Of a stretch of DNA of 41,278 bases, positions 25,765 through 26,326 are shown in pieces (position 1 is the stretch's first letter; every line of letters starts with the position of its first letter). The notes beneath the pieces were generated by a model, which was given only the letters and a program-made list of their open reading frames with translations, was not told the DNA's origin and did not search any database. This stretch comes from a virus (taxonomy: Duplodnaviria; Heunggongvirae; Uroviricota; Caudoviricetes). Both the position numbers and the translations under genes were made by a program. The stretch lies in IMG/VR virus record IMGVR_UViG_3300014682_000025; one strand, written 5' to 3'.

Positions 25765-25932
25765 ACCCGCTCCAGAATGTTTTAAACATGCATCTTGCGA
25801 ACAACTTTAGGCAAACGGTGTTAGTGATGAACAAAAAACAATCAGAATCGACACCATAAAAATAAAACCACTGTAATATCAATCAATTACAGTAGTGGTG
25901 ATGACGAATAAAATTTCAAAAACTAGCCTTTT

Positions 25933-25954
25933 TCCGCGACGCTCCCGCCCCGTG
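25933..25954 (-). other. cos site, cosN-like; minus strand reads ACG-GGGCGGGAGCGT-CGCGG (compare lambda ACG-GGGCGGCGACCT-CGCGG)
   Basis: Read from sequence; located about 170 bp upstream of the Nu1-like gene. Confidence 0.6.
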
Positions 25955-26326
25955 GCAGGGGCCCCCACCGGGAGGACCCGACAGCCTGACAGCCTGACAG
26001 CCGTGACGAGCATCTGATACAGCGCTTTACATAATGGCATAGGAATAATTCAGAAGGACATCACAGCATGCCCACACAAATTAGTGTGAGTGTCCTGTTT
26101 CTTCCTACGCACAGGACTGACGAGCATGAGGGGAAAATATGCGAACCATAAATGCCTCATTTTCAGCAATGCAGCCGGCATCCGAACAGGACGATATTGT
26201 AAATTCACCTAATTACGAGGACATTGCAGTAGTTGAATTGCAGCTCTGTATTAGCCTGACAGTGACAGAATGCGATATTGACTCTGTCACAGGTGAAATA
26301 GTTTGAATGATTAGCAGTTATGGTGC

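Follow-up and report, generated by a model that had tools for sequence, protein, structure and literature searches.

A predicted lambda-type cos site with a variant 12-nt overhang upstream of a DUF1441 small terminase gene in a lambdoid prophage

The DNA analysed here is a stretch of 41,278 nt, referred to throughout as the window. It is a lambdoid prophage of full length, lying on the minus strand. It begins with a host MFS transporter gene (1-1284), followed by genes for a side tail fibre, a J-type tip protein and a tape measure protein, and then by a ClpP-protease/capsid fusion (19479-21698), the portal (21451-23031), a head-tail adaptor, the large terminase (TerL), the small terminase (TerS) and the cos region. 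Beyond cos are ybcW/ybcV-like genes and the lysis cassette, so that cos sits between the lysis cassette and the terS-terL-adaptor-portal block. A run of 10 Ns at 9913-9922 divides the J-type tail-tip gene region into two open reading frames (7529-9952 and 9856-10845); it presumably marks a scaffold gap or masked bases. Window positions 26181-26400, some 230-450 bp rightward of cos, share 89% identity with lambda 47871-48090. Neither the 230 bp nearest cos nor the head genes are lambda-like, which places a mosaic junction just inside the right arm.

The features of the cos region and the terminase genes are listed below, with cos coordinates counted from bp 1 at window position 25950.

23168-25270, minus strand: large terminase, 700 aa, with gpA ATPase and gpA endonuclease domains (GpA_ATPase, 1.6e-71; GpA_nuclease, 1.1e-85).
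25270-25764, minus strand: small terminase, 164 aa, DUF1441 / phrog_141 (phrog_141 'terminase small subunit', 7e-74).
25821-25830, minus strand: candidate R1-like site TCATCACTAA, cos bp 121-130, low confidence.
25870-25893, no strand assigned: dyad ACTGTAAT-N8-ATTACAGT, cos bp 58-81, a perfect inverted repeat.
25877-25889, plus strand: exact match to the IHF core consensus WATCAANNNNTTR, as TATCAATCAATTA, cos bp 62-74.
25895-25904, minus strand: candidate R3-like TerS site TCATCACCAC, cos bp 47-56, low confidence.
25917-25938, minus strand: I2-like segment CGCGGAAAAAGGCTAGTTTTTG, cos bp 13-34, with A5 and T5 runs.
25937-25952, minus strand: cosN core, CG-GGGCGGGAGCGT-CG, placed from the sequence and from deposited record ends.
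25973-25979, minus strand: cosQ heptamer GGGTCCT, identical to lambda bp 48473-48479.
25980-26007, no strand assigned: 8-bp repeat, GACAGCCT on the plus strand and GGCTGTCA on the minus strand, 3.4 copies by Tandem Repeats Finder, abutting cosQ.

TerL is 88% identical to the TerL of phage cdtI and 25% identical to lambda gpA. The small terminase gene starts at cos bp 187, close to the position of lambda Nu1 (bp 191), and the sequence-only reading had named it Nu1. That label was not upheld: the protein has no Pfam Nu1 match, DUF1441 being the sole Pfam match at E≤0.01, and in PHROGs it matched phrog_141 with a weak second match to phrog_57. The gene therefore encodes a DUF1441 / phrog_141 small terminase, and its product is a functional analogue of Nu1. 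The RefSeq PGAP name for its homologues (e.g. WP_000373425.1) is just 'DUF1441 family protein', and PHROGs and several phage records name the same homologues terminase small subunit.

On the minus strand, cosN reads CCACG-GGGCGGGAGCGT-CGCGG, with the overhang at window 25939-25950. In context the sequence is ...ccacg gggcgggagcgt cgcggaaaaagg..., and the order of elements is ...GGCTGTCAGGCTGTCAGGCTGTC-GGGTCCT-CCCGGTGGGGGCCCCTGCCACG-GGGCGGGAGCGT-CGCGGAAAAAGGCTAGTTTTTG... The overhang is identical to that of lambda (GGGCGGCGACCT) at 8 of 12 positions, with bp 1-6 all matching and mismatches confined to bp 7, 8, 9 and 11, and the flanks ACG and CGCGG are the same as in lambda (ACG-GGGCGGCGACCT-CGCGG). 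When the lambda 20-mer ACGGGGCGGCGACCTCGCGG was scored explicitly over the whole window, cosN was the top match at 16/20; a score of 16/20 anywhere in a first-order Markov shuffle of 41 kb has P=0.03, before any use of context. A search of the window for the 20-mer with at most three mismatches returned no match, cosN having four, and no second cosN-like site was found across the window. By hand count, the rotational symmetry of the 16-bp cosN is 8/16 here vs. 10/16 in lambda, with the outer pairs retained and the inner pairs partly others.

The staggered nicks are predicted at 25951/25950 on the minus strand and at 25938/25939 on the plus strand, and the predicted left (terS-proximal) end is 5'-GGGCGGGAGCGT. 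Given how little TerL shares with gpA, these nick positions are transferred from lambda over a large distance. Natural variation of cosN in lambda-like phages is common at bp 7-12 (bp 9 and 12 in N15; bp 8, 9 and 11 in Gifsy-1), the left half of cosN and the flanking CG dinucleotides are conserved, as is, highly, the 7-bp cosQ, and changes in the right half of cosN leave cleavage unaffected (PMC4669245). The four overhang differences in the window all lie within bp 7-12 and therefore fit this documented, tolerated variation (PMC4669245). A search of the full-text literature with the 12-mer, its reverse complement and near variants, for which the cosN survey and the cdtI paper lay outside the material searched, returned only unrelated papers. 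The dedicated survey of natural cosN variation is reportedly that of Vahanian et al. 2017.

The heptamer GGGTCCT was reportedly identified as lambda cosQ, the packaging-termination signal, by Wieczorek and Feiss 2001. In the window, 22 nt separate it from the downstream nick (23 nt in lambda); a pattern that assumed the 23-nt spacing gave no match. On the other side of cosN lies the I2-like segment. In lambda, I2 is a segment with poly-dA/poly-dT runs that has been shown to be essential (PMC4856287). Within the segment in the window, bp 18-34 (AAAAAGGCTAGTTTTTG) are nearly invariant over four TerS classes.

A pattern scan of IMG/VR returned at least 122 sites in at least 120 loci. Because the flanking CG, bp 1-11 and bp 13-24 were specified in the query pattern, only bp 12 of the overhang was free, and the identity of bp 13-24 of the I2-like segment at these sites is set by the pattern itself. 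Among the matches listed, bp 12 was T (GGGCGGGAGCGT) at 100 of 122 sites and G (GGGCGGGAGCGG) at the other 22, and the distance between cosQ and the nick was 22 nt for 115 of the 122. When diverged copies from E. coli and phages were aligned on cosN, the overhang, both CG dinucleotides, cosQ at -22 and bp 13-34 were conserved, while the flanks on either side of this block were swapped for unrelated modules. Exactly at GGGTCCT, the block is joined to one of at least six unrelated right-end sequences, and on the terS side the classes cease to resemble one another past CGCGGAAAAAGGCTAGTTTTTG, near bp 34. From there on, at least four cosB/TerS classes can be told apart; among the matches listed, the 164-aa class of the window has 57 members and the cdtI/Tritos class 24, and two more classes also have DUF1441 proteins. 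The module from cosQ to bp 34 thus travels with TerL, and the class-specific cosB, from bp 35 onward, goes with the DNA-binding end of TerS, much as between lambda and phage 21. These boundaries agree with the established lambda/21/N15 picture and do not change it. Of 5426 complete E. coli genomes, 2113 contain the 341-bp region around cos.

An ATG open reading frame of 53 aa on the minus strand (25879-26040) covers cosQ, cosN and I2, and homologous frames are entered as 'hypothetical protein' in several phage records. It matched no Pfam or PHROG family and is probably an over-annotation rather than a gene; cohesive ends would cut the frame in virion DNA.

The ends of deposited phage genomes were compared with the predicted nicks. 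The records of phage cdtI (AB285204.1) and Tritos (OV696610.1, a prophage of LF82) start with GGGCGGGAGCGTCGCGG, and hence with exactly the overhang 12-mer, and end in ...GCCACG, as predicted for the window. Asakura 2007 is said to be the source of the cdtI record. The record of Hafnia phage yong2, whose TerS is 57% identical to that of the window, ends in GGGTCCT-N22-GGGGCAGCGACA and starts with CGCGGGAAACGGCTAG (CGCGG), which puts the break exactly at the predicted bottom-strand nick. The ends of these three records may have been chosen by analogy with lambda. The Tritos paper contains no end mapping (PMC9928086), and the Ayreon paper puts cos merely 'within ~1 kbp upstream of terS'; virion production has been described for two of the three phages (Tritos and the Ayreon relatives). 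The variant overhang itself is already public, at coordinate 1 of the cdtI genome record (Asakura 2007) and also in Tritos and many E. coli prophages. A further linear record, mEp460_4F5 (LR595868.1), was opened 5 nt upstream of the nick with 3 nt of cosN missing (GGGCGGGAGC-GCGG), a break that is most simply an assembly artefact at cohesive ends.

We also examined the region between cosN and terS, where the dyad had been proposed as a cosB/IHF element. Perfect 8-bp inverted repeats with a loop of at most 12 nt are expected by chance about 0.04 times per 175-bp interval. The exact IHF core consensus that the dyad encloses occurs just twice in the 41-kb window, which corresponds to an expectation of about 0.007 per cosB-sized interval, and an A/T tract (about 25858-25866) lies near it. 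Among the matches listed, the dyad is perfect at 34 of 56 sites of class 0, the class of the window, and absent from the other main TerS classes, c1-c3. Across 38 distinct class-0 sequences, bp 66-67 and 82-83 are hypervariable, and there is essentially no variation in TAAT (bp 62-65) or TTGATATT (bp 69-76), as expected for an IHF core YAANNNNTTGATW with a 3' T-tract; within the consensus, the hypervariable bp 66-67 fall on two of the four N positions, and the specified positions hardly vary. At the same coordinate the other TerS classes have a TTGAT(A/T) element. Relative to its position in lambda, the IHF-like core is shifted about 12 bp towards cosN.

None of the eight core pairs of the dyad showed a compensatory double change, and one-sided changes pile up in the outer right arm (bp 77-81), so that the symmetry itself is weakly supported. 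A cosB/IHF role for the dyad is plausible, chiefly on account of the IHF core consensus that it contains. From these sequence comparisons, the dyad and the IHF core within it most likely constitute an I1-type bending site.

Alternatively, the dyad could be the primary TerS site, a palindromic operator for a DUF1441 dimer within a compact cosB unlike that of lambda (R3-I1-R2-R1) or N15 (a single R3). Such a role would suit its low chance expectation and its occurrence with window-type TerS only, since the three other main classes that share cosQ, cosN and I2 are without it; the start of the dyad at bp 58 also overlaps the position of lambda R3 (bp 50-65; PMC9026076), and no lambda-type R triplet is detectable in the window class. 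However, the half-sites are 16 bp apart from centre to centre, about 1.5 helical turns, which would be awkward for a symmetric dimer, and the absence of compensatory double changes and the one-sided changes in the outer right arm also speak against it. Conservation within the dyad peaks at the IHF-consensus positions, not at the arm ends. In addition, RQTAAARL is found in the putative HTH region of TerS in both c0 and c3, although the two classes differ in the dyad, and TTCGTCATCA at bp 43-52 is common to both. We therefore regard an operator of this kind as unlikely.

A role in the transcript appears less probable still. The dyad and its T-run might form a weak intrinsic terminator, or an RNA or DNA hairpin in the late transcript upstream of terS, rather than a protein-binding cos element. 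A consensus scan of the terS strand did find a stem of 11 pairs with TTTATTTTTA after it, the DNA hairpin of the dyad has a folding energy of -5.8 kcal/mol (z = -2.6), and several natural variants of the dyad are G-T compatible. However, just three pairs of the stem are G-C, the 196-nt leader taken in full is no more stably folded than shuffled sequences (z = -0.31), the T-tract is conserved in classes that have no stem, and a terminator placed before the head genes would need read-through anyway. A hairpin function is thus improbable, and the same z-score led us to reject a structured RNA leader as a candidate in its own right.

TCATCAC occurs at bp 47 and again at bp 121, forming a weak 8/10 direct repeat (bp 47-56 vs. 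bp 121-130). The first copy is at the coordinate of R3 in Fels-1 (bp 47), and the second is near that of Fels-1 R1 (bp 119). In a test for a direct-inverted-direct (R3-R2-R1) triplet, the window class scored 21/30 (P=0.77), compared to 28/30 for both lambda and Fels-1 (P<0.005 for each). We prefer to read these elements as a putative degenerate R3 and R1 with the dyad/IHF element between them. It is conceivable, but doubtful, that the mEp460-type class has an undescribed kind of cosB, one that dispenses with the R3-R2-R1 triplet and in which a class-specific 8-bp inverted repeat wraps an IHF core about 12 bp nearer cosN, and that it forms a further initiation-specificity group sharing cosQ, cosN and I2 with at least three others. 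Nearer to terS, 3 nt upstream of its ribosome-binding site, is a 13-nt palindrome, ATGTTTTAAACAT (ATGTTTAAAACAT on the terS strand), at 25777-25789. The block that contains it (cos bp ~140-186) is almost invariant in the window class, present in c3 and partly retained in c2, and the palindrome may be a translational or regulatory element.

Three direct repeats on the far side of cosN had also been noted as flanking the cos site. Their presence was confirmed by Tandem Repeats Finder, and the last unit overlaps the base before GGGTCCT, but a role as a cos element did not survive comparison. Among the matches listed, the three-copy form occurs at 8 of 122 sites. Copy numbers of two and three are found between flanks that are identical save one base, and the commonest right-end type has two imperfect copies. 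No copies at all are found in cdtI and several other right ends with the same cosQ and cosN. On this distribution, the repeats are a replication-slippage polymorphism in one right-end lineage, dispensable and not a cos subsite. That the three GGCTGTCA copies serve as a functional accessory to cos, e.g. an extra termination or protein-binding signal, is very improbable: they do directly adjoin cosQ, and two imperfect copies persist in the commonest right-end type, but copy number changes between near-identical flanks, the unrelated repeat-free right ends joined to the same cosQ and cosN number at least six, cdtI included, and lambda has nothing comparable.

Taken together, the 8/12 overhang match with identical flanks, the ends of deposited records, cosQ, the I2-like segment and the distance to the terminase gene bear out the original proposal of a variant 12-nt lambda-type cosN. 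We are confident that 25858-25979 on the minus strand is the cos of an mEp460/cdtI/Gifsy-type lambdoid prophage and that it works like lambda cos, with its nicks as predicted above. A cos-like relic, with the real ends elsewhere or an overhang of another length, is hardly credible: the relative Gifsy-2 does have an aberrant sequence at the homologous place, but the site is strictly conserved in diverged copies, the record ends of three phages, two of them described as virion producers, coincide with it, and the window holds no second site of the kind.

By analogy with lambda, the DUF1441-type TerS would bind cosB during late growth, downstream of cosN towards terS, and an IHF-induced bend at TAATTGATTGATA inside the dyad would aid this binding. 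TerS would then place the gpA-family TerL on cosN, where TerL would nick the packaging strand at CCACG/GGGCGG and, 12 bp away, its complement after ...GAGCGT. The expected product is virion DNA with the left end 5'-GGGCGGGAGCGT. Packaging would proceed from the terS side and stop at the next cos, where the translocating enzyme would read cosQ (GGGTCCT), cosN and the A5/T5 I2-like segment.

Placing cos exactly allows a very common type of E. coli prophage to be oriented and delimited, the ends of its virion DNA to be predicted, and phages or satellites able to exchange or hijack packaging to be identified. Beyond annotation, the importance of the site is small; it is a real but ordinary cos.

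Compared to lambda, the window has the same order and orientation of cos relative to terS-terL, the same cosQ, the same left half of the overhang (GGGCGG) and both flanking CG dinucleotides, an AT-rich I2 after cosN, an IHF-type core in cosB and a TerS start about 190 bp from the end. It differs from lambda at overhang bp 7, 8, 9 and 11, in the cosQ spacing (22 vs. 23 nt), in its distant TerL (25% to gpA), in having a DUF1441 / phrog_141 TerS in place of Nu1, in the absence of a significant R3-R2-R1 triplet and in the position of the IHF-like core, about 12 bp nearer cosN.

Around the nick, cdtI and Tritos are identical to the window in the 12-nt overhang, the bases that flank it, cosQ at -22 and bp 13-33. 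The Tritos sequence also matches the window at 100% over the 450 bp that precede the nick, the three 8-bp repeats included. However, the cosB of both phages is unrelated to that of the window from about bp 35, and their TerS is just 42% identical. Judged from these sequences, the window probably has a different packaging-initiation specificity from cdtI and Tritos, as lambda has from phage 21.

Two cos sites also occur 10.7 kb apart on a single contig (IMGVR_UViG_2574179916_000005, 1-11983). The order there is cos, a window-type TerS, a truncated 331-aa TerL with just the ATPase domain, an integrase, Bro-N, an AAA_25 replication protein, SSB, a ClpP/capsid fusion, a second cos (GGGCGGGAGCGG) and a different DUF1441 TerS. 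The capsid-cos-TerS order is also found in the complete E. coli chromosomes NZ_CP031653.1 and NZ_CP028769.1. The element looks like a capsid-encoding, satellite-type insertion in a prophage terL with a cos of its own.

N15 is perhaps like the window in having a 'simple' cosB that lacks an R triplet and has its critical element near bp 48-60 (PMC4669245, PMC9026076). However, N15 has no IHF site and its Nu1-like TerS accepts lambda cosB, whereas the window has the IHF core consensus and a TerS of another family.

Fels-1, Gifsy-1 and Gifsy-2 share with the window a DUF1441 TerS, a gpA-like TerL and a head module with the ClpP-capsid fusion. Fels-1 has CCACG-GGGCGGCAGCGG-CGCGG at the distance from terS seen in the window, and both Fels-1 and Gifsy-2 have GGTACTCC at the position expected for the cosQ GGGTCCT. 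In Gifsy-2 (NC_010393.1, ~17975-18040) the cosN region reads CCACG-GGTGGCTTCGGGCT-CGCGG, with 14 nt between the conserved flanks and an altered left half. Unlike the window class, Fels-1 has a clear TCATCATC triplet, R3-R2(inverted)-R1, with the significant score given above. Its TAACTCATTGTTT at bp 61-73 resembles lambda TAACTTAATGTTT between R3 and R2, the interval in which lambda I1 is located (PMC9026076). With a TerL only 25% identical to gpA, the window belongs to the Gifsy/Fels branch of the lambda-like group, a branch that Feiss et al. include in that group through Gifsy-1 (PMC4669245).
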